A DNA stretch of 36,089 nt from an uncultured Candidatus Saccharibacteria bacterium. GTDB taxonomy: Bacteria; Patescibacteriota; Saccharimonadia; Saccharimonadales; Saccharimonadaceae. Made by a program: the position numbers and the translations under genes. Shown here piece after piece: positions 8,962-34,419 of the stretch. The notes beneath the pieces are model-generated. The model did no database searches. It was not told where the DNA came from and worked only from the letters and a program-made list of their open reading frames with translations. Each line of letters begins with the position of its first letter. Position 1 is the first letter of the stretch. The stretch spans positions 1 through 36,089 of the forward strand of contig CALJRR010000032.1 of the NCBI GenBank assembly GCA_937976315.1. Reading direction: 5' to 3'.

Positions 8962-10200
8962 ATGAACGAACCAATTCACATCACGTCTGAAATAGGAAAA
9001 CTTAAGACCGTTCTATTGCATCGGCCAGGTGAAGAGCTGGAAAATTTGACGCCAGACTATCTGACCGATCTTTTATTTGACGATATTCCATATCTGAAAG
9101 TGGCGCAGGCTGAACACGATGCTTTTGCGGAAGCATTGAGAAGTCGTGGAATCGAAGTTTTGTATCTGGATCAATTGGTCGCCGAGGCAATTAGCACGGA
9201 TCAATTGCGCGAACAGTTTGTCGATGAAATGTTGGCTGCTTCTAAGCAGGATTCACGCCGTGTTACTCAAACATTGCGCCAATTCTTGTTGGACTTGCCA
9301 ACTCACGCTATGATCCGCAAGATTATGGCTGGTGTTCGCAAGGATGAAATTACTTTGCCTCCAGATCAGCATCAGCAACTTCATAATATGATCGAGAAAA
9401 ATCATTATCCGTTCTATCTCGATCCAATGCCAAACCTATACTTTACACGCGACCCAGCTGCCGCAATTGGTAACGGTTTGACAATCAATAAGATGCACTG
9501 GACGGCTCGTCGTCGTGAATCGCTATTTATGCGCTACATCATCGACCATCATCCACGCTTTGCTAATCGTGCGCCAGTTTGGTACAACCGCACAGAGAAA
9601 TTCTCAATGGAAGGCGGTGACGAATTAGTATTAAGCGATAAGGTTATGGCAATTGGTGTTTCAGAACGAACAACTGCTGAGGCAATTGAAAAGATGGCAA
9701 CCAAGCTGTTTGCTGGCTCGAAATTCGAGAAAGTCATCGCTATGGAGATTCCAAAATCTCACGCCTTTATGCACCTAGACACCGTGTTTACGATGATTGA
9801 TCGTGATAAGTTTACGATTCACCCAGAAATTCGCGACCACGGCGGCAGGATGAATTGTTTTATTTTGGAGAAGGTTGAAGGTCAGCCATTCCCACGAATT
9901 ACACACGAAACAGACCTGGAACACGTCTTGAGAGTTGCGCTGGGCTTGCCGACTGTTACATTGATTGAGTGTGGCGGTGGTGATCCGATTGCTGCTGCTC
10001 GTGAGCAGTGGAATGACGGTTCAAACACTTTGGCGATTGCGCCGGGTGTTGTGGTGACTTATGATCGCAACTACGTAACTAACCAGAAATTGCGCGAAAA
10101 CGGTATCGAAGTTATCGAAATTAGTGGCGCTGAGCTTGGACGCGGCCGTGGCGGTCCACGCTGTATGAGTATGCCGCTAGTACGAGAGGATGTATTCTAA
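8962..10200 (+). CDS. arcA: Arginine deiminase
   Basis: [48 protein letters not shown] catalytic motifs. Confidence 0.98.
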
Positions 10201-11189
10201 TGGCTCAGAGTTTGAAAGGACGATCGCTACTGACTTTAAGTGATTATACCGCTGAAGAGATTCGCTTGCTATTGGACACGGCTCGTGAATATCGTCGATT
10301 GAAATATGCCGGCATTCCGCACCGAATTCATGAGGGTAAAAATGTGGCTTTGTTGTTCGAAAAGGCTTCAACGCGAACGCGCTGCGCATTTACGGTGGCT
10401 GCTAATGACCTTGGAGTTGCGCCGGAATACCTCGGTAAAGATGATATTCAATTGGGCAAGAAAGAGACGGTTGAAGATACCGCTAAGGTTTTGGGTCGAA
10501 TGTTTGACGGAATTGAGTTCCGTGGCTTTGATCACGCGACTGTTGAGGAATTGGCGCGTCACGCTGGCGTTCCAGTATGGAATGGATTGACCGATAAGTT
10601 TCATCCAACACAGATTTTGGCTGACTTCATGACAATTGAAGAGCATGTCGGAAAATTGAAGGGAACTAAGCTGGTGTTTGTTGGTGATGGTCGCAACAAT
10701 ATGGCAAATTCGCTGATGATTGGCTCAGCTATTATGGGACTTGATTTCCGTATTTTGGCACCTCGTGAATTGCATCCAGATCAGGCTTTGGTTGATAAAG
10801 CAAATCATTTTGCCAGGTCAAGCCACGCACGTATCACCATCACTGACAACTTCGAAGAAGCTTTGCGCGGTGCTGATGTAATTTACACGGATGTCTGGGT
10901 TTCAATGGGTGAGGAAGATAAGTTTGCTGAGCGCATTAACCAATTGCGACATTTCCAAGTTAATCGCCAGATGATTAACCTGACAGGAAATCCTGAGGTC
11001 AAGTTTATGCACTGCTTGCCAGCATTCCATGACGCATTGACGATTACTGGAAAGAAGATTCAGGAAGATTTCGGTTTAGATTCAATGGAAGTGACGGATG
11101 AGGTGTTCCGCTCGCCACATTCGATAGTTTTTGATCAAGCGGAAAATCGTATGCATACAATCAAGGCTGTGATGGCTTTGACATTGTAG
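10200..11189 (+). CDS. arcB: Ornithine carbamoyltransferase (catabolic)
   Basis: [40 protein letters not shown]. Confidence 0.97.
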
Positions 11190-11228
11190 TTGTTGTCGTA
11201 ATAAGGAGGTTAAGGAGGCTCCGAGGCA

Positions 11229-12773
11229 ATGGTAGAAAAAATTAAAAAAGCAAAGCAGAAGCTTCGATCACCGTCGGCGTTTACTATTTTGTTTGTCGTG
11301 ATCATCGTTATGGCGGCATTGACGTGGGTTGTTCCTTCTGGACTATATAAGACAAACGAAGATGGCGATCGTATAGCTAATTCATATCACGTAGTCGACA
11401 AAGATCGAACCGTCACGGAAGAAAAAGACGGTAAAAAGGAAGAGGCCAAAAAACACGACCAGCAAGGTTTGTGGGACGTCTTTACTGCACCTATTAAAGG
11501 TATGTCAGACAAGCTTGATGTCATCGTCTTCGTGATGGTGCTTGGTGGATTCTTAGGCGTCACTATGAAAACTGGTGCGCTTGATGCTTCTCTTGGTGCA
11601 CTACTTCGAAAGATGAAGGGCAAGGAAAAGTGGCTCATCCCGATTCTGATGATTTTATTTGCTATCGGTGGTACTACTTACGGTATGCAAGAAGAAACTG
11701 TGGCGTTCTATGCGCTCGTCATACCGATGATGATTGCTGCTGGCTATAACGCCATGACTGGTGTGATGGTTATCGTGTTGGGTGCTGGTACTGGTGTGCT
11801 CGGCTCGACAATCAACCCATTCTCTACTGGCGTTGCAGCAAAAACCGCAGACGTGAAATTGGGTAGCGTTATTCCAATAATGTCTATCATCTTAGTACTT
11901 TGTTTGATTGCTGCGATTATCTTTACTATGCGTTACGCCGCAAAAGTTAAGGCAGGCAAGTACAAAGAAGATGTTCGCTACAAGCCAGCTACGGCTGCTC
12001 TCGACACGACAAACGTACCAAAATTTACTGGTCCACGAAAAGTCGTTATGTCTGTGTTTGCTATTACGTTTGTGCTAATGATTCTTTCCTTGATTCCATG
12101 GGGAAGTTGGAATATCACACTCTTCGCTGATATGTTTGAATGGGCTGCAGGTTTGCCAGTCATTGGCGCGGTACTTGGTGTAGTCCACAGTGCGGCATTT
12201 GGTGATTGGTATTTCAATGAAATCACTGCACTATTCCTAATTTCAACAATTGTCATAACCGCAATTTACTACAAAGAATTTAAGAAAGAGGGTGTTTTCC
12301 CGGTTGATACATTTATTGACGGTGTGAAAGATATCTTGCCGGTTGCTCTGATTATCGCAGTGGCAACAGGTGTTTCTGTAGTGATGACTAACGGTGAAAT
12401 TCAGGACACGATCATCAGCTGGGGTGAGTCCCTTCTGAAAGATGCTGGTGGCGGTGTTGTCGGTGTATTGGCGTATCTATTCTACTTGCCAATGTCATTT
12501 ATCGTTCCGTCATCATCAGGTTTGGCGGCAGCAACTATGCCGGTTATCGCGCCAATTGCTGACTTGGTTGGCTCAAGCAAAGAAGTTATGGTTGCCGCAT
12601 TTGCGACAGCGTCTGGCTTGATCAACATGATGGCTCCAACTATCGCGTCATTGATGGGTGGATTGGCCTTGGCTGGCGTTTCATATCGCGACTGGCTAAA
12701 ACGTTCAGCTCCAATTATGGCAGTATTTGCTATTATCAGCATTACAGTTATTGCAATTTTCGGAGCACTGTAG
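11229..12773 (+). CDS. YfcC/DcuC-family transporter, probable arginine/ornithine antiporter
   Basis: PSAFTILF...TWVVPSG, GTTYGMQEET, STINPFSTG, PSSSGLA motifs; position inside the arc operon; AGGAGG RBS. Confidence 0.88.
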   Translation: MVEKIKKAKQKLRSPSAFTILFVVIIVMAALTWVVPSGLYKTNEDGDRIANSYHVVDKDRTVTEEKDGKKEEAKKHDQQGLWDVFTAPIKGMSDKLDVIVFVMVLGGFLGVTMKTGALDASLGALLRKMKGKEKWLIPILMILFAIGGTTYGMQEETVAFYALVIPMMIAAGYNAMTGVMVIVLGAGTGVLGSTINPFSTGVAAKTADVKLGSVIPIMSIILVLCLIAAIIFTMRYAAKVKAGKYKEDVRYKPATAALDTTNVPKFTGPRKVVMSVFAITFVLMILSLIPWGSWNITLFADMFEWAAGLPVIGAVLGVVHSAAFGDWYFNEITALFLISTIVITAIYYKEFKKEGVFPVDTFIDGVKDILPVALIIAVATGVSVVMTNGEIQDTIISWGESLLKDAGGGVVGVLAYLFYLPMSFIVPSSSGLAAATMPVIAPIADLVGSSKEVMVAAFATASGLINMMAPTIASLMGGLALAGVSYRDWLKRSAPIMAVFAIISITVIAIFGAL

Positions 12774-28255: not shown

Positions 28256-28747
28256 ATGAAGTCGAAGACGGTTGAAGTGTTGGAGCTTGCTAGACCGAAC
28301 AGAGCGGGCGTTATTGATGTTGTTGATTCGGACGGTAATGTTGTGCCGTTGGATTATTTAGGCGAAGATTTTGTTCCTGATGCGAATAGCTATAGTGATG
28401 AAGATTTTACGAAGAGAAATAGAATTATAGTTGAGATGTGTGATCTTTTCGGCAGGATTCGTCGTCGTGCTGGCTTTGCCGAATATCATAGAGGTCGTGG
28501 CAACTATGATCGAGCTCGTCGCATAGAAAGAAACAGGGGTAGTGATATTTCTGAAGTTGGCAGACTTGCTATAAATGCTTGTGAAGCATGTCCACTTAAG
28601 CTTGATTGTGAACTGTATGGTAAATTAGGGGAGGCTGTTCTAAGTGATGTTTTGGATTATAAGAAAGTTCGCACAGCCACATCTCTGACTAAAGCAGGCA
28701 AGAAACGTCCGGGTTGGAATAAGGGTTGCATAGATAATGATGTGTAA
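28256..28747 (+). CDS. Hypothetical protein with WhiB-like CxxCPx4C motif
   Basis: AINACEACPLKLDC; TTGATT-17 bp-TATAAT promoter directly upstream. Confidence 0.7.
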   Translation: MKSKTVEVLELARPNRAGVIDVVDSDGNVVPLDYLGEDFVPDANSYSDEDFTKRNRIIVEMCDLFGRIRRRAGFAEYHRGRGNYDRARRIERNRGSDISEVGRLAINACEACPLKLDCELYGKLGEAVLSDVLDYKKVRTATSLTKAGKKRPGWNKGCIDNDV

Positions 28748-28784
28748 AGAAAAAGCCCCCTTCTAGACGAAGAGGGATTTTTCT
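28748..28784. terminator. Bidirectional terminator-like hairpin; probable original tRNA-fMet terminator
   Basis: AGAAAAAGCCCCCTTC/GAAGAGGGATTTTTCT imperfect inverted repeat abutting the left direct repeat. Confidence 0.65.
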
Positions 28785-28789
28785 TGGTG
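28780..28789. repeat. att core, left copy (TTTCTTGGTG)
   Basis: Identical to 30850-30859. Confidence 0.7.
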
Positions 28790-29070
28790 ACCCAAGTGCA
28801 TCTACATTGGAACCGTATCTGTAGCGAGATTCTGAGCTGAAGACGCTTAATAGAGGCGACCACCCCTTCAATAAAGATACCCACCGCCATTAAAGTATAT
28901 CGTAACAGAATGTGTTAATATCAATAAATTATCCTCTTGACTACTTTTACGTTGTCCAGCCTGATAAATTCATAAATCAGCACTAAATGTCGTGGTTGGG
29001 TTAGACTAAGATTGCCACAAAGGGCTAATCGAGGTCGCTTATTTAGGAGATTGACGATATAATCAAAATA

Positions 29071-30033
29071 ATGAAGAAAAACTCTCAAGCACAGCTCCAG
29101 GGTATGTTACTCGGCTTAGCTATTGGCGACGCCCTCGGTGCTCCTATTGAACACGGCTACACAAGTGATGAGATTGTCGCTCGTAAAGAAGAATTGCGTC
29201 ATATGCACGATGAAGCACACTTTCCTCGTGGTGTCTGGACAGACGATACTTCTATGGCATTATGTTTAGCAGATAGCTTGCTAGAGTGTGGCGGCTATGA
29301 TTCGTGGAACGTTATGGATAAGTATTGCAAATGGCAATCAGAGGGCTACCGTTCGTATTTTGACTATGGCGAGGGCATTGGCATGCAGACACTTATCATG
29401 CTGGATATGTACGCTAGCGGTTACGCTATTGTTCACAAAACGATGAATCGGAGCGATGGTGCTGGCAACGGCGTTGTAATGCGTCTCGCGCCAGTCGTGA
29501 TAGCTGCCTACGGCAAACGAGATGTTCGTGACGTGATACGACTTGCTCAAGTCTCTGCTAGAGAAACGCATTACTCCTATGAGGCTGAAGCTGCTGCTGA
29601 AGTGTTTGCTGCCATACTACATAACGCTATCCATCTAAAAAACAAAGCAGATATTATAGATGTTAGTAAGTATAGTACTGGCGCACACTACGACCAGCTG
29701 CTGAACAAGCTAAAAGAGAGAGTTGAGACAGATAAGCTCAAGAATAAGCCAGGTTATGTCGTATACACCCTCCAGATAGCTTTATGGGGCTTTATGAACT
29801 ATGACACATTTGAGGACGGAATGTTGGCAGTTATGTGTCTGGGTGGCGACGTCGATACAACTATGGCAGTGTACGGGCAATTAGCTGGTGCATACTATGG
29901 GCTTAATGCGATACCGAACGAATGGCGGCGTGATGTTTATCAAGGGAATGATATTATTGAACTAGCAGATAAACTAGCCGCAATGGACGATTGCCCTGTC
30001 CTGTATACACGGTTTGAGGAAGATGTAACTTAA
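29071..30033 (+). CDS. ADP-ribosylglycohydrolase (DraG/ARH family)
   Basis: GLAIGDALG, WTDDTSMA, GNGVVMR, ETH, GGDVDTT, GQLAGAYYG..IP. Confidence 0.93.
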   Translation: MKKNSQAQLQGMLLGLAIGDALGAPIEHGYTSDEIVARKEELRHMHDEAHFPRGVWTDDTSMALCLADSLLECGGYDSWNVMDKYCKWQSEGYRSYFDYGEGIGMQTLIMLDMYASGYAIVHKTMNRSDGAGNGVVMRLAPVVIAAYGKRDVRDVIRLAQVSARETHYSYEAEAAAEVFAAILHNAIHLKNKADIIDVSKYSTGAHYDQLLNKLKERVETDKLKNKPGYVVYTLQIALWGFMNYDTFEDGMLAVMCLGGDVDTTMAVYGQLAGAYYGLNAIPNEWRRDVYQGNDIIELADKLAAMDDCPVLYTRFEEDVT

Positions 30034-30058
30034 TACAAATTAGGAAGAGAATGACTAT

Positions 30059-30472
30059 ATGAACAAAACAACATTAGAAACCGCTCAGCAACTACTAGCC
30101 ACAAAAGAGTTTAGCTACAAGGATATTAACCCAGGCGAAAGAGGAATATTCCTAGCGGCGCTTATTGAGAATGGTAAAGTCGCCAAAGAAGGAACTAACC
30201 ACCACTCAAATATCCCCAAAGTAACGCTGATTAGTGAGTGGTATTTACGGCATGAGTTAGGACTAGGTGGAGTGATTAAGCACGACCTATACACTTCGCT
30301 TGAGCTGTGGAAGTTAGATGATAAGCGATATCAAATTATCTATTATAAGCCCTTCGGTTTGGGGAATTATGTTGAAACAAAATCAGAATTCTATGACGAT
30401 AAAGACTCTGCTCAGGCTCACCTTGACGAAGAATCTCGTAAGCTTGAAGCAGAGTTATCTCGCCTTGAGTGA
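30059..30472 (+). CDS. Hypothetical protein (island cargo)
   Basis: 137-aa ORF 25 nt downstream of the ARH gene, AGGAAG upstream. Confidence 0.7.
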   Translation: MNKTTLETAQQLLATKEFSYKDINPGERGIFLAALIENGKVAKEGTNHHSNIPKVTLISEWYLRHELGLGGVIKHDLYTSLELWKLDDKRYQIIYYKPFGLGNYVETKSEFYDDKDSAQAHLDEESRKLEAELSRLE

Positions 30473-30540
30473 TAAAACCTAGAATCATCTTTTGTCAAAG
30501 TAAGTCATGCTAGGTGCTGCTACTTTTTGTGCTTGGATTG

Positions 30541-30898
30541 TTGTATGATAAAACAGATCTAATAAATGCGTATGATGACGATAAGGTAATGATAGCCGAC
30601 AAGCTACGGCGACTAGAGCGTCAGCAAGCAATACGAGAGACTGATATTGATGTTGCTCTTGAGATTATGCTAGATGTAGATAGATAATGGGTACTGGCTT
30701 CGTCGGGCGCTAGGGCAAGGTTCCAAAGCATATTATTCCCCACAGGGGTTGATATATGACTATAAAAACCATAGGTTTGGAACCAGTGAAGTCAGTGTAT
30801 TTTACAGAGTGCTACCAACCAAAAAAGGCTCTCCAGAACCTGAAAAACCTTTCTTGGTGGCGGGGGTAGGATTTGAACCTACGACCTTTTGGTTATGA
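30541..30898 (+). pseudogene. Remnant C-terminus of a probable large serine recombinase
   Basis: LERQQAIRETDIDVALEIMLDVDR*WVLASSGARARFQSILFP [+1 frameshift at CCCC 30738-30741] QGLIYDYKNHRFGTSEVSVFYRVLPTKKGSPEPEKPFLVAGVGFEPTTFWL; stop at 30685; catalytic domain absent, so the family is inferred from recalled resemblance and position. Confidence 0.6.
30850..30859. repeat. att core, right copy (overlaps tRNA-fMet CCA end)
   Basis: Identical to 28780-28789; reverse complement CACCAAGAAA. Confidence 0.7.
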
Positions 30899-30931
30899 GC
30901 CAAACGAGCTACCAGGCTGCTCTACCCCGCG
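30855..30931 (-). tRNA. Initiator tRNA-fMet(CAT)
   Basis: CGCGGGGTAGAGCAGCCTGGTAGCTCG 5' half, C1xC72 mismatch, A11-U24, CTCATAA loop, encoded CCA. Confidence 0.95.
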
Positions 30932-30974
30932 ATACATAATTATGATATCAGCTTAGCGTAATAATTGCAACACC

Positions 30975-31424
30975 TTAGTGTTTATGACTATTGCCACCAA
31001 ATAGAAAGTTCATCCATTGCTGGAAATTGCTGTCAGTCCGCTTCGCGCTCGACGCAAGTTTTTGGGCGGGTGTGGCGCTTTCGAAAGATTGGGTGATGAG
31101 CTGTTTTTCGCCGGGTAGACCTTTTCCTGTGCGCTGTCTAATGGTTAATTCTTGATATTCTTCGCTTTGATAATATTTCGATTCGTATTCCAGCAAGGCG
31201 ACTTGTAATTTTTCTATTTCCACTTGCTGGCGTTTGTTGTCGATAGAGCGTTGCAGTTCGTAGTTTTTTTGCATTGATTCAATGGAGCCCCAAGCCCAAC
31301 TCATAGCGATTAAAATCGCAGCAGCAATAACGGCATTATTTAGGGTTAAATAGTCGTGCTGTATTCTGTAAATTAATCGTTTGAGTTTTAATTTGTTCAT
31401 TTTTGCAAATTTAATATCTACCAC
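30975..31424 (-). CDS. FtsB/DivIC-like septum formation initiator protein
   Basis: Single TM, coiled coil, then EYQELTIRQRTGKGLPGEK resembling the E..AR..LG...PGE motif. Confidence 0.65.
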   Translation of the reverse strand: MVDIKFAKMNKLKLKRLIYRIQHDYLTLNNAVIAAAILIAMSWAWGSIESMQKNYELQRSIDNKRQQVEIEKLQVALLEYESKYYQSEEYQELTIRQRTGKGLPGEKQLITQSFESATPAQKLASSAKRTDSNFQQWMNFLFGGNSHKH

Positions 31425-31482
31425 ATAATATTGTAGCAGGAATGGTAAAAATATTCATCTTATGATTATCAAGTTCAGACTG

Positions 31483-31558
31483 TGGTGGGGGCGGCTGGGA
31501 TCGAACCAGCGACCAATCGGTTATGAGCCGACTGCTCTAACCCCTGAGCTACGCCCCC
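31483..31558 (-). tRNA. tRNA(CAT), probably Ile2 (lysidine-modified)
   Basis: GGGGGCG/CGCCCCC acceptor stem, GTCGG-CTCATAA-CCGAT arm resembling known Ile2 tRNAs, encoded CCA; isotype is an inference. Confidence 0.9.
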
Positions 31559-31588
31559 GTGAGACTTATTATAGCGCATCAGAGGTAA

Positions 31589-32959
31589 TTATAGAAGTTT
31601 TCCGGCGGCAATTCGCACGGCTTCTGACCAAGAAGTGAAACAATGCGGAGTGGACGCTAGTTCTTCGCTGGTAATTTTATGTCGAACAGCTAGGGCTAGC
31701 TCGGCTGCCATATCGCTAGCGTGCGGTCCGACGATCGTTCCGCCCACGACAACTCGCTTCTTATCAACGATCAATTTCACAAAACCTATTCGCTGGTCGG
31801 TAATGTTACTGCGCACGGTAGTTGTAAGCGGAACAATTACTATTTTTGCGCTTATTCCTTTCGCCTTACAATCGTATTCATTCAATCCAATTTGAGCTAT
31901 TTCTGGCTGAGTAAATGCAACTTGTAGGCGCGGGGAATCATTGAATTTAATCTTATTATTATGTAGCAAATTATGAGCCGCAATACGACTCTGCGCTAAA
32001 GCTGTATGAGTTTGGATATTAGCGTCAGTTGCATTTCCTGCGGCAAAAATATGCCGAGCGGAAGTTTGCAGGGAAGAATTAACCAAAATGCCATTTTCGG
32101 TATATTTTACGCCGGCGTTTTCTAAGCCTAAATCTGTCGCAGGCAATTGTTGGTCGGCAATTAGAATTTCATCAACGCGTACAGATTTCTCTATTCGCCC
32201 TTGCAGAAAAGTGACGCGCTTTTGTATAGACGATTTTTGTATAGCGATAATCTTAGTGCGAGCTAAGATTGAAATATTGCGATTTTTTGCGTCATTCGCA
32301 ACCAAAGTGCTGACTTCTGGGTCAAATGTTGATAATATTCTGGGCGATTTCTCTGCTACGTAAACTTTTGCTCCCAGGGTAGAGAAGATGTGTGCTAATT
32401 CTAGCGCCGTAGCTCCCGCACCAACAATGAACATGGTTTTTGGTGGACGCTTCAAGCTAAAAATAGTTTTTGGAGTGTGGTAAGAAACGGCGCTTAATCC
32501 AGGTATTTCTGGAATTTGCCAATCAGATCCAGTTGCAATGAGAAATTTACGAGCGGACAGGTGTCTTCGATTGATGGCTATTTCGTTCGGACTCAAGAAA
32601 TGTGCATTGCCAGCAAAAACACTAATGCCTTGCTTCTCGTAATAATAGCGATTGCCACCAGCTCCAGTCCTCTTTACGACTTTGTCTTTCCAGGAGAGTA
32701 GAGAAGGGTAATTATACCCAACCGAGTTGGTTCGCAGCCCAAATTTAGCGGCATCTTTGGCTGTTTGATAAACGTTAAGAGCATGAGTTAAAAATCCAGT
32801 TGGCACATCTCCCCAGTTTGGTGATTCCCCGCCGAATGTTGATTTTTCTACAACAGCAACTTTTTTTCCAGCGCTTGCTAATATGCTAGCTGCGGGCGAA
32901 CCGCCGGCGCCGCTACCAATTACGATATAGTCATAGTCAAAAGTTGGTTTTTGCGACAT
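31589..32959 (-). CDS. Class I pyridine nucleotide-disulfide oxidoreductase homolog lacking the redox cysteines
   Basis: IVIGSGAGG FAD motif, IATGS, VGAGATALE NAD motif, FTQPEIAQIG, C-terminal dimerisation domain; GGESPNWGDVPT in place of GGxCxNxGCxP; AGGAG RBS. Confidence 0.88.
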   Translation of the reverse strand: MSQKPTFDYDYIVIGSGAGGSPAASILASAGKKVAVVEKSTFGGESPNWGDVPTGFLTHALNVYQTAKDAAKFGLRTNSVGYNYPSLLSWKDKVVKRTGAGGNRYYYEKQGISVFAGNAHFLSPNEIAINRRHLSARKFLIATGSDWQIPEIPGLSAVSYHTPKTIFSLKRPPKTMFIVGAGATALELAHIFSTLGAKVYVAEKSPRILSTFDPEVSTLVANDAKNRNISILARTKIIAIQKSSIQKRVTFLQGRIEKSVRVDEILIADQQLPATDLGLENAGVKYTENGILVNSSLQTSARHIFAAGNATDANIQTHTALAQSRIAAHNLLHNNKIKFNDSPRLQVAFTQPEIAQIGLNEYDCKAKGISAKIVIVPLTTTVRSNITDQRIGFVKLIVDKKRVVVGGTIVGPHASDMAAELALAVRHKITSEELASTPHCFTSWSEAVRIAAGKLL

Positions 32960-32967
32960 CAAATCTC

Positions 32968-33255
32968 CTAAATTATGGTTTTATAATTTTTATATAAATA
33001 AGCCGCGTCGGGATGCAGAGTTTTCATAATGCGTTGTGCTTGGCAGCGGATATCGGCAGAGGTTATTTCTGGGTGAGTTTCGCACCAATTCATAACGCCC
33101 AAAGTGACGGTTTTTGCGATGTCTTGAGCTTGACCCTCTGGCGTACGAACGCTTAGGCAGGTGGCAATTATGGAATTGTGGAGCTTGTCTGGGCTAAACT
33201 CCTCTGGCAGTCGTTTTCCCTGTTTGATGACGTCAATTTGACCTGGCTTTACCAT
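32968..33255 (-). CDS. Stand-alone ATP-cone domain protein
   Basis: VIKQGKRLPEEFSPDKLHNSI...ITSADIR...AAYLY matches the ATP-cone pattern. Confidence 0.75.
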   Translation of the reverse strand: MVKPGQIDVIKQGKRLPEEFSPDKLHNSIIATCLSVRTPEGQAQDIAKTVTLGVMNWCETHPEITSADIRCQAQRIMKTLHPDAAYLYKNYKTII

Positions 33256-33986
33256 AGATTGCCTCCGTAGCTGATAACGCCAATAACGCGGTCGACGAAT
33301 AGGAATGCTGCTAAAATCAATAAGCTACCACCGCTGGCGAATTGCAAAAATCTCTTATGATCTTCCCGCCAACGTTGTAAATTAGAGATGCTGCGTCCGC
33401 TGCCGATCAAGACGATAACGACAAATAACGGCAGTGTGGACACGATGACGTAGATCGCTATGCTGATGATTTGCAAGAAGGGGTTTGGTAGGGTGATAAT
33501 AGCCAGGCTGGCGGCGGTAATTGGCGCGATAATAAATATGATTTCTGCAATAACGCTAATTATTCCCAGGGCAAAGCTCTCTATGGAATTTTTGGTTTTT
33601 TTGGTGCGCTTGTTTAAATATTCCGCAAAATTGCGTGGAAGCCATAATGAAGTTCCTGGTTGTCGTCGAAAGTAGAATGCCCAAATTGCGATTCCTAAGC
33701 CAAACATCATCCCTGAAGAGACGGCGGCAACGAGTTGCTCTGCGCTGGTGGCGTGGTGGATGAATAGTGATAAGAAATAGGAAATGGAGCTGATAAGTAA
33801 CAAGGTGATTATTGCGACTCCAAGTACAAAACTGTTGCTCATACGAAAAATTTTTCTCTGGGCGGTTTTTTTGCCAATCGAATGTCCGCTAAGTAACGTT
33901 AAAACGCTGACGCTAAGCTGAAAACTAGCGTGAATAATCGCTGCAAAAATTATAGTAGCCAGTGATGAGATTGTTACAGGGGTCAT
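33249..33986 (-). CDS. Multi-pass membrane protein (possibly DsbD/LysE-like 6-TM fold)
   Basis: About six hydrophobic segments; 7-bp overlap with the ATP-cone gene. Confidence 0.75.
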   Translation of the reverse strand: MTPVTISSLATIIFAAIIHASFQLSVSVLTLLSGHSIGKKTAQRKIFRMSNSFVLGVAIITLLLISSISYFLSLFIHHATSAEQLVAAVSSGMMFGLGIAIWAFYFRRQPGTSLWLPRNFAEYLNKRTKKTKNSIESFALGIISVIAEIIFIIAPITAASLAIITLPNPFLQIISIAIYVIVSTLPLFVVIVLIGSGRSISNLQRWREDHKRFLQFASGGSLLILAAFLFVDRVIGVISYGGNLW

Positions 33987-34059
33987 TTTTGTGTATAAAT
34001 CCTTCCCTACCAGTGTACCACAAGCGGAATGAAAAGGTAAATAATGACCGAAAAAGGTA

Positions 34060-34088
34060 TTGCTTTTTTGTCAAATTTATGATAGTAT
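34060..34088 (+). promoter_or_regulatory. Probable promoter of a 54-aa small ORF
   Basis: TTGCTT-17 bp-TAGTAT with extended TGn. Confidence 0.5.
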
Positions 34089-34125
34089 AAAGACAGTTAA
34101 ATAATTAACACAAAAAGGAAAAAAT

Positions 34126-34290
34126 ATGGAAATCAACACCAGTGAATTAGCTGAATTTTTAGAAGTAACCCGAAAAAGGGATCTAGCAACGTGGGAGCGT
34201 CAGCGTAATTCATGGGAATTGGATAGCTTTGTGTCACGACGATTGGCGGCTTTGGACGGCGTTCAATCTGAAGAGCTTGAGCTAATTTAA
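34126..34290 (+). CDS. Putative 54-aa acidic small protein (MEINTSELAEFLEV...EELELI)
   Basis: AAAGGA RBS, upstream promoter, downstream hairpin 34309-34331; below ORF-track cutoff. Confidence 0.6.
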   Translation: MEINTSELAEFLEVTRKRDLATWERQRNSWELDSFVSRRLAALDGVQSEELELI

Positions 34291-34342
34291 TTCAGTATCT
34301 ATAAAAAATTCCCCGTCGTATTGACGAGGAAAAGATAATTTC

Positions 34343-34419
34343 TGGTAGCACCGGGTGGACCCGAACCACCGACCTCAGGCTTATGAGTCCTGCGCTCTAA
34401 CCAGCTGAGCTACGGTGCC
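34343..34419 (-). tRNA. Elongator tRNA-Met(CAT)
   Basis: GGCACCG/CGGTGCT acceptor stem, TAGCTCAGCTGGTTAGAGC D-arm, CTCATAA loop, encoded CCA; isotype is an inference. Confidence 0.9.

Follow-up and report, generated by a model that had tools for sequence, protein, structure and literature searches.

The window analysed here is a 36,089-bp stretch of DNA from an uncultured Candidatus Saccharibacteria bacterium, and it carries a small genomic island at the end of a methionine tRNA gene. All island coordinates are given on the whole window. The left side of the island is marked by a terminator-like hairpin (28747-28785), an inverted repeat (I1) with arms at 28747-28763 and 28769-28785 of 17 nt and 88% complementarity. 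The hairpin is terminator-like on both strands and also terminates the upstream 163-aa host open reading frame (ORF; 28256-28747). It runs into a 10-bp core sequence, TTTCTTGGTG, located on the plus strand at 28780-28789 and repeated exactly at 30850-30859. The left core copy is followed on the plus strand by a short tail-like frame (28787-28840), an ADP-ribosylglycohydrolase gene (29071-30033), a gene for a 137-aa protein of no known family (30059-30472) and the remnant of a large serine recombinase (LSR; 30547-30898). The right core copy overlaps the final 5 nt (the CACCA end, 30855-30859) of a tRNA-Met(CAT) gene, which ARAGORN places at 30855-30931 on the minus strand. This tRNA has an unpaired C1/C72 atop the acceptor stem, a hallmark of bacterial initiator tRNAs, and is hence initiator-like; in the window's other two CAT tRNAs, positions 1 and 72 are paired.

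The boundaries of the island can be read from close relatives. TTTCTTGGTG is present exactly twice in the window, and shuffled controls gave a mean of 0.08 matches with two or more matches in 0 of 100 shuffles. The left-flank ORF is found in three close relatives (G018, G003 and G005), where it is 96-97% identical. G018 is colinear with the window including the island at ~95% DNA identity, and the island is also present in G003 (~95% DNA identity). The alignment to G005 extends up to position 28789 and resumes at 30850 with a 10-bp overlap. Read directly, G005 contains the hairpin, then TTTCTTGGTG, then the tRNA body with no gap, which is an exact empty site. Because G005 joins exactly at a single copy of the 10-mer, the repeat marks the true ends of an insertion, and the island comprises exactly 28790-30849 (2,060 bp) flanked by one duplicated core. 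An initial annotation of the sequence had noted the repeats at 28780 and 30850, a hairpin at 28748-28784 that joining the repeats would place directly behind the tRNA, and a duplication limited to the CCA end, and it had proposed to check whether cargo-less relatives break at the repeat. G005 breaks exactly there, the hairpin is real and abuts the tRNA in that genome, and 5 nt of the tRNA are repeated.

The same annotation had cautioned that a 10-bp repeat alone is weak. We agree, given that the 10-mer taken alone is at chance level in a 3.6-kb stretch, and the weight therefore rests on the empty site and the family evidence. That the repeat is mere coincidence in native chromosomal sequence, or that the island is of the tyrosine type, is so improbable as to be negligible. 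Two exact 11-mers (D14 and D15) likewise repeat by chance within the same 3.6 kb, but the empty site falls exactly at the repeat in G005, which rules out a coincidence in native chromosome, and over 100 loci display this architecture. A tyrosine-type island is contradicted by a tRNA duplication of 5 nt only and by the absence of any tyrosine integrase among the 8 local ORFs scanned against Pfam.

By homology, the decayed frame at the right end is the C-terminal part of an LSR. With its internal TAA read through as X, the frame used as query matched in 39 of 401 genomes of the same family. The best match was a 532-aa ORF (L042:4785-6383), with 76-79% identity over residues 417-532, so that 116 C-terminal residues remain in the window. 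This ORF encodes Resolvase, Recombinase and Zn_ribbon_recom domains, and its YIRISSQRQ motif contains the catalytic serine. Intact relatives span 504-556 aa with Resolvase, Recombinase and Zn-ribbon domains; the resolvase domain PF00239 is matched at E-values of 1.2e-22 to 6.8e-27, and PF07508 and PF13408 match L042 and L050. An AlphaFold2 model of P0002, a natural recombinase with tail (11-row alignment, mean predicted local distance difference test score (pLDDT) 74, predicted template modelling score 0.35), contains long helices at 357-404 and 410-437, as expected for the coiled-coil insert of intact relatives. The window copy has lost residues 1 to ~416, including the N-terminal resolvase catalytic domain with the nucleophilic serine, and carries an internal TAA stop (30685-30687) and a frameshift between 30740 and 30756. 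Because of these defects and a premature stop in the tail remnant, the window copy is immobile, a dead descendant rather than a working member of the LSR elements. The serine-recombinase identity, the homologues to be expected from it and the decay through stop, frameshift and loss of the catalytic domain had all been anticipated from the sequence, and each is borne out by the comparison with intact relatives.

The remnant frame had further been proposed to run through the right repeat into the antisense strand of the tRNA. It does so and ends as ...KPFLVAGVGFEPTTFWL*, with the final TGA (30896-30898) within the antisense anticodon loop. Such an ending is common in the family. Among the 29 family loci returned by the remnant search, the whole or decayed frame ends inside a tRNA gene read antisense in 22. 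Eleven of these overlap a tRNA-Met gene by 44 nt and close with ...FLVAGxGFEPxTxWL*, nine overlap a tRNA-Glu gene by 41 nt, and two overlap a tRNA-Arg gene, by 41 nt and 113 nt. The longer tRNA-Arg overlap belongs to L039 (G109:C4), where the recombinase reads 113 nt of tRNA-Arg(TCG) before its stop as opposed to the usual 41-44 nt. The remaining 7 loci include one frame ending 52 nt short of a tRNA-Glu, two running off the contig and four without a tRNA nearby.

The left end of the island provides a second possible ending of the same gene. Positions 28781-28840 translate to FLVTQVHLHWNRICSEILS*, the open alternative tail in the recombinase frame that the initial annotation had predicted from joining the repeats. 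Within it, the remnant of the excised-form tail, VTQVHLHWNRICSEILS (28787-28840, plus strand), ends at a premature TGA (28838-28840) where close relatives have TGG (W18) and continue to 35 codons. A pattern common to the left ends of five islands, GGTKRCCCAAGT-N8-ATTGGAAC, was used to scan larger collections. The scan returned 54 stretches in the genome collection, almost all from Candidatus Saccharibacteria, Saccharimonadales or Nanosynbacter records with some from other members of the candidate phyla radiation (CPR), and 110 stretches in metagenome contigs, 80 of which were analysed. The pattern had 0 matches in viral contigs, so there is no sign that the islands are phages. Three stretches (L103, L132 and L135) were dropped as chance matches with unrelated translations, and 103 distinct left ends remained after their removal. 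These left ends were found with a pattern derived from the tail feature itself.

All 103 left ends read V[AT]QVxx[HN]WNx[IL]xxE[IL]xRWxxL... in the recombinase frame. The residues I/L11, E14 and W18 are kept in 101, 95 and 95 of the 103, respectively, and a hydrophobic residue is found at position 15 in all and at position 21 in 96. Codon 15 is NTN in all 103, and the E14 codon shows entropies of 0.14, 0.08 and 1.09 at its three positions, which is a wobble pattern. The tail stops at codon 36 in 64 of 103 left ends. The frame stays open for at least 25 codons in 89% of cases in the recombinase frame as opposed to 12% and 14% in the other two. The ratio of nonsynonymous to synonymous polymorphism (pN/pS) across 47 distinct 35-codon tails is 0.76 in frame vs 1.06-1.09 in shifted frames, a figure to which many already decayed islands contribute. 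Overall, the tail is under modest but real coding constraint, and the protein-level evidence comes mainly from I/L11, E14, I/L15, W18, L21 and the fixed stop. The proposed conservation of an LVT-x5-WN tail thus holds for the tail as a whole across the 103 left ends, but the WN itself coincides with a DNA motif, TTGGAACC, that is probably part of the attachment (att) site.

Further support for the alternative tail at the protein level comes from contiguous genes in which it is fused to a recombinase, and close homologues with either ending occur in the protein collection. P0003, P0005, P0006, P0007 and P0011 end in tRNA-Glu antisense (...MVISPGIEPGLPG). P0002, P0004, P0008, P0009 and P0010 run on from the same MV/LV position into the tail (e.g., ...VMVNRLLANWNLISSEIIRWNK...), with P0002 and P0004 corresponding to L050 and L049. 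Contiguous recombinase and tail genes are also found on contigs L025, L087, L111, L117 and L153. In L087, L111, L117 and L153, the recombinase C-terminus continues straight into VTQVGxNWNQL...; a blastp search of upstream frames against the family recombinases found only L087 of these four, and the other three were recognised by eye from their motifs. The continuous forms lie on contigs with other resolvases, in L050 also with a type IV coupling protein, and may represent either free elements or junctions inside tandem arrays.

Two observations touch on how left ends are arranged. Most of the 513-aa recombinase P0013 is unrelated to P0002, but its tail is 91% identical to the P0002 tail. This suggests a recombinase reading into the left end of a neighbouring element, and hence that internal tandem junctions occur. 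Two left-end tails in tandem on one contig were found in L095 (2415/5766), L108 (326/1233) and L138 (4327/6001), which suggests successive insertions at the tRNA-proximal side and thus island accretion.

Intact elements define the anatomy of the att sites. We recovered 11 distinct elements with an LSR open frame of 504-556 aa and a left-end tail of 28-37 aa, and islands with an intact recombinase are 3.7-7.9 kb long. A core of 5-12 bp containing TGGT is common to both ends in 10 of the 11; in the remaining one (L086/L174), the script detected no core in common. Decayed elements share cores of 10-18 bp. A 5-bp shift between the attP site of the element and the attB site of the target appears to be general among serine integrases. 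In the consensus of 50 reconstructed sites, the attP arm contains TTGGAACC 22 nt from TGGT and the tRNA arm contains TTTGAACC, in the T-arm, 17 nt from TGGT. Judged from these consensus motifs, the offset is a 5-bp register shift, as described for the phiC31 zinc-ribbon domain between attB and attP in the accessible part of 10.1101/2025.05.02.651858. The displacement is of the LSR att type, and the WN of the tail, which coincides with TTGGAACC as a probable part of the att site, may therefore be conserved as DNA. Dyad symmetry across the 50 reconstructed attP/attB sites was weak, and the best score of 0.43 came without an evident centre, which left the central dinucleotide unplaced within TGGT. 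A degenerate tRNA at 28787-28870 was considered and rejected, with none found by ARAGORN; an attP arm mimicking the tRNA arm explains the resemblance better.

We suggest that the locus is an LSR island at the 3' end of an initiator-type tRNA-Met gene, belonging to a family whose crossover lies inside its own recombinase gene and gives that gene state-dependent ends, and that the window copy is immobile. We assign this reading a probability of about 0.87. The data directly show where the island begins and ends, an empty site, an enzyme of the LSR type, two alternative in-frame ends of its gene and a conserved tail. On this reading, the LSR inserted the 2,060-bp island at the 3' (CCA) end of the tRNA gene, with the attP crossover falling within TGGT, the antisense of the tRNA ACCA end, inside the 3' coding region of the recombinase. 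In the excised or attP form, the gene ends with a tail of ~35 residues, V[AT]QVxx[HN]WNx[IL]xxE[IL]xRW..., encoded by the island left end. In the integrated form, the same gene ends with 11-14 tRNA-antisense residues (...LVAGVGFEPTTFWL*), and the element's own hairpin and T-run appear to take the place of the displaced tRNA terminator. The tail would act in the excised phase, be it in integration, stability or control, and the tRNA-ended hybrid gene would act or fail after integration.

Several points weigh against this reading. Codons 1-9 of the tail are fixed by the scan pattern and only codons 10-36 are independent evidence; the sequences are also related, so that the counts overstate independence. 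A pN/pS of 0.76 indicates only modest constraint, and the WN motif may be conserved as att-site DNA rather than as protein. In the P0002 model, the tail forms a helix at 522-544 after a low-confidence linker, and its pLDDT of 34-50 is too low for a statement on the contacts of the predicted tail. For G005, a deletion between the 10-bp repeats could in theory have produced the empty site, which would then be neither an ancestral nor an excised state. Some of the continuous genes may be internal junctions of tandem arrays and not free circles, and all contiguous recombinase and tail genes belong to the tRNA-Glu or other-CPR branches, with no continuous form found for the tRNA-Met branch of the window. 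No circle junction was found for any Met-type element in the run data, which consist of contigs and cannot show rare forms.

What the tail does depends on how its conservation is explained. The tail would have to matter in the excised phase, because it is selectable only while attached to the recombinase and is conserved nonetheless. The tRNA-ended hybrid might then be an excision enzyme, a disabled enzyme or a functional equivalent, and the present evidence cannot separate these three. The last of these would make the arrangement a neutral by-product of compaction, with a left end that is mainly an attP arm recognised as DNA and a tail without a role of its own. The strongest motif, ATTGGAAC, encodes WN and mirrors the tRNA T-arm motif at a 5-bp shift, as such an explanation would predict, and both the pN/pS of only 0.76 and the low confidence of the modelled tail are in line with it. 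However, conservation reaches 40-105 nt from the crossover, farther than the att sites of serine integrases, whose size is given as 40-50 bp in the portion of 10.1101/2025.05.02.651858 available to us. The coding signatures, namely the wobble at E14, the invariable NTN of codon 15, the stop at codon 36 and a frame open in 89% vs 12-14% of cases, also speak against it. We regard a neutral by-product as improbable.

Integrated copies are mostly decayed. Of the genome left ends followed by a tRNA (34 in total), an unbroken LSR of at least 480 aa was found in 7, a remnant in 16 and no recombinase in 11. The corresponding numbers for 26 metagenome left ends are 5, 11 and 10. This predominance of decay could be explained if loss of the tail inactivated or weakened the recombinase, making integration effectively one-way and leaving the gene to degrade. 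The tandem left ends in L095, L108 and L138, suggestive of accretion without loss, would fit as well. Such a one-way process would, however, need some exit from the chromosome to account for the spread over many genera with different cargo, and intact recombinases persist in integrated copies. An altered integrase also stays active in the Mx8 precedent, as far as the accessible text of PMC6070905 describes it. We hold this explanation as a tentative candidate only.

Evidence for recent mobility comes from soil. Contigs of three soil runs were compared with the 7.4-kb island of L062. In run X3, a 2,639-nt contig with a depth of 8.6 skips exactly 7,396 bp of this island, with 8 bp fitting both sides, and a separate contig with a depth of 2.4 spans the occupied left junction, along with interior pieces. 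Near-identical genomes with and without the L062 island thus coexist in this sample. The polymorphism is population evidence that would point to recent mobility, by gain or loss alike.

Occupied and empty sites in one sample would also be expected if the two gene ends acted as a directionality switch, in which the tailed form carries out attP x attB recombination and the tRNA-ended hybrid carries out attL x attR recombination with less or no need of a directionality factor. The conservation of a tail selectable only when fused, i.e. in the excised state, and the very small size of elements with intact recombinases (3.7-7.9 kb) are likewise consistent with it. Fusing a directionality factor to an integrase C-terminus by engineering is reported to control directionality (PMC5737554, seen in part), and a fusion construct of such kind is described in the accessible part of 10.1101/2025.05.02.651858. 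The switch is nonetheless deduced from sequence, with no circle junction in contigs, which cannot show rare forms, and with a tail modelled at low confidence. Directionality factors among the other island ORFs would moreover not be recognisable by homology. We consider such a switch rather unlikely.

A broader formulation, which we put forward tentatively, is a hard-wired directionality or commitment switch. The enzyme made from the circle would have a charged linker leading into the conserved helical tail of 35 residues, the enzyme made from the integrated copy would have a tRNA-encoded end, and the two might differ in substrate preference or stability with no separate directionality factor. 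If true, a single 3' coding stretch would encode the protein linker, form the attP arm and, in antisense, terminate the initiator tRNA.

The terminator function is suggested by a second hairpin with a T-run (30826-30841, minus strand), which lies 14 nt past the tRNA 3' end. This terminator-like hairpin is antisense within the last codons of the recombinase (KKGSPEPE). Across the family, 43 of 47 distinct right ends have a comparable structure on the tRNA strand, in which the last codons before the crossover, KK[GD]SEEPSKSF, form a hairpin with a T-run behind it. The element appears to carry, within its coding sequence, a substitute for the tRNA terminator that its insertion displaced.

Altered gene ends upon integration have precedents. 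The target of the Myxococcus phage Mx8 is reportedly tRNA-Asp. In Mx8 (IntP/IntX), attP lies inside the tyrosine integrase gene and integration yields a recombinant gene whose 3' end is new; the altered integrase is reported to be still active with changed specificity (PMC6070905, accessible part). The family described here shares the crossover within the recombinase ORF that gives a new 3' end. The chemistry differs, given that Mx8, a 50-kb phage, encodes a tyrosine recombinase, whereas the islands described here are 0.6-7.9 kb long and their enzyme has serine-recombinase domains. Here, a conserved helix-like tail of ~35 residues is also exchanged for tRNA-antisense codons.

Classical LSRs mostly target protein-coding genes, have an attP outside the int frame and rely on a separate directionality factor. 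The present elements differ in targeting a tRNA 3' end and in having attP in the gene's own 3' end. They resemble phiC31, Bxb1 and A118/LI in combining Resolvase, Recombinase and Zn-ribbon domains with a long helical insert (10.1101/2025.05.02.651858; PMC1470463; PMC3556126; each available in part). The likeness to these systems, as covered there, extends to a short shared core (5-12 bp in 10 of 11 intact elements) and a half-site motif shifted by ~5 bp between attP and attB. The Int protein of phiRSM, a filamentous Ralstonia phage, is likewise a serine recombinase acting at a tRNA 3' end with a 13-nt core, but is described as a small enzyme of the resolvase/invertase type with an attP between ORF14 and ORF15 (PMC3816273, in the text available).

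Other systems share single aspects. In mycobacteriophages and the corynephage CyranoPS (10.64898/2026.10.29.762952, partial text, for the latter), integration-dependent immunity involves an attP in the 3' end of a gene and a change of both C-terminus and behaviour, and integration alters the 3' end of phiRSS0 ORF13 by the same principle (PMC3816273, available part). In the immunity systems, a repressor or regulator is affected and the integrase is of the tyrosine type, whereas here the recombinase itself is altered. Islander-type islands also reside at tRNA genes and restore the displaced part, here the CCA-end bases and the terminator. Those islands, as characterised in the available part of PMC4383910, encode tyrosine integrases and duplicate the displaced target fragment, in contrast to the 5 nt repeated and the serine recombinase found here. 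Neither an LSR with attP inside its own gene nor serine-recombinase islands in Saccharibacteria were found in the literature, in a search with most subscription journals outside its coverage. Gene ends altered by integration are thus already known as a principle, and the LSR version is a variant that we did not find described.

The cargo of the window's island consists of two genes. The 320-aa ADP-ribosylglycohydrolase (29071-30033, plus strand) matches Pfam PF03747 at an E-value of 1.7e-62 and 212 bits vs a gathering cut-off of 26.2. An assignment as a Tri1 or DraG equivalog was rejected, with NCBIfam scores below the curated cut-offs (169 vs 490 bits and 133 vs 337 bits, respectively). The protein is found at full length with 95.6-98.8% amino acid identity in 21 other loci; a further match is split into two pieces, and another is a fragment of 50 aa. 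The 137-aa protein (30059-30472, plus strand) has no Pfam, NCBIfam or PADLOC match, and its only hits in the protein atlas are hypothetical proteins of Saccharimonadota. Full-length matches at 88-96% identity were found in 20 loci, plus two partial or split ones. PADLOC matched neither cargo gene.

Islands of ~2.07 kb like that of the window occur in Candidatus Nanosynbacter records (L054, L060 and L093) and others. The same truncation of the recombinase, with a start at residue 417-424, is found in 7 of 9 such genome loci; in the other two (L063 and L068), only residues 481-532 remain. Because the truncation and the intact cargo are common to related loci, the loss of mobility is, on this comparative evidence, old, and both cargo genes, intact across related species, are under selection. 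The window's island is fixed and dead, with its two cargo genes domesticated.

LSRs are widely used genome-engineering tools, and their one-way behaviour is normally controlled through a separate directionality protein. An enzyme whose C-terminus is rewritten by recombination itself would, if true, be a new coupling of enzyme form to integration state. In Saccharibacteria and other CPR bacteria, genetic tools are scarce and only a few ways in which genes are exchanged are known. The family represents a common class of very small mobile islands (0.6-7.9 kb) at the initiator tRNA in Saccharibacteria and at tRNA-Glu and tRNA-Arg in other CPR. Elements with defined att sites and intact recombinases are candidate integration tools (L055, L059, L061, L062 and L080, and further L086, L090, L119, L128 and L134). 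For the window itself, the result is more modest, i.e. a dead, fixed island with domesticated cargo.

Additional observations concern the surroundings of the islands. The window has three tRNA genes with anticodon CAT within 3.6 kb (30855-34419), all on the minus strand, and two of the three are insertion points in relatives. In G003, the second tRNA-Met(CAT) gene has a 5-kb insertion (L011 1780-6763) precisely at its 3' end, corresponding to 31477/31483 of the window. No recombinase was seen with the cargo of this insertion, which is a 7-deazaguanine-type gene set. The insertion encodes GTP cyclohydrolase I, PTPS/QueD-like, radical-SAM-like, QueC, Ham1-like pyrophosphatase and thymidylate-kinase-like proteins, together with a 263-aa ORF matching no family. 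On the L050 contig (G336:C42), an OLD-type TOPRIM ATPase adjoins a UvrD-like helicase at 9701-12542, which we take to be a Gabija-like gene pair. The same contig also encodes three serine recombinases, an Mrr-like nuclease and the type IV coupling protein.

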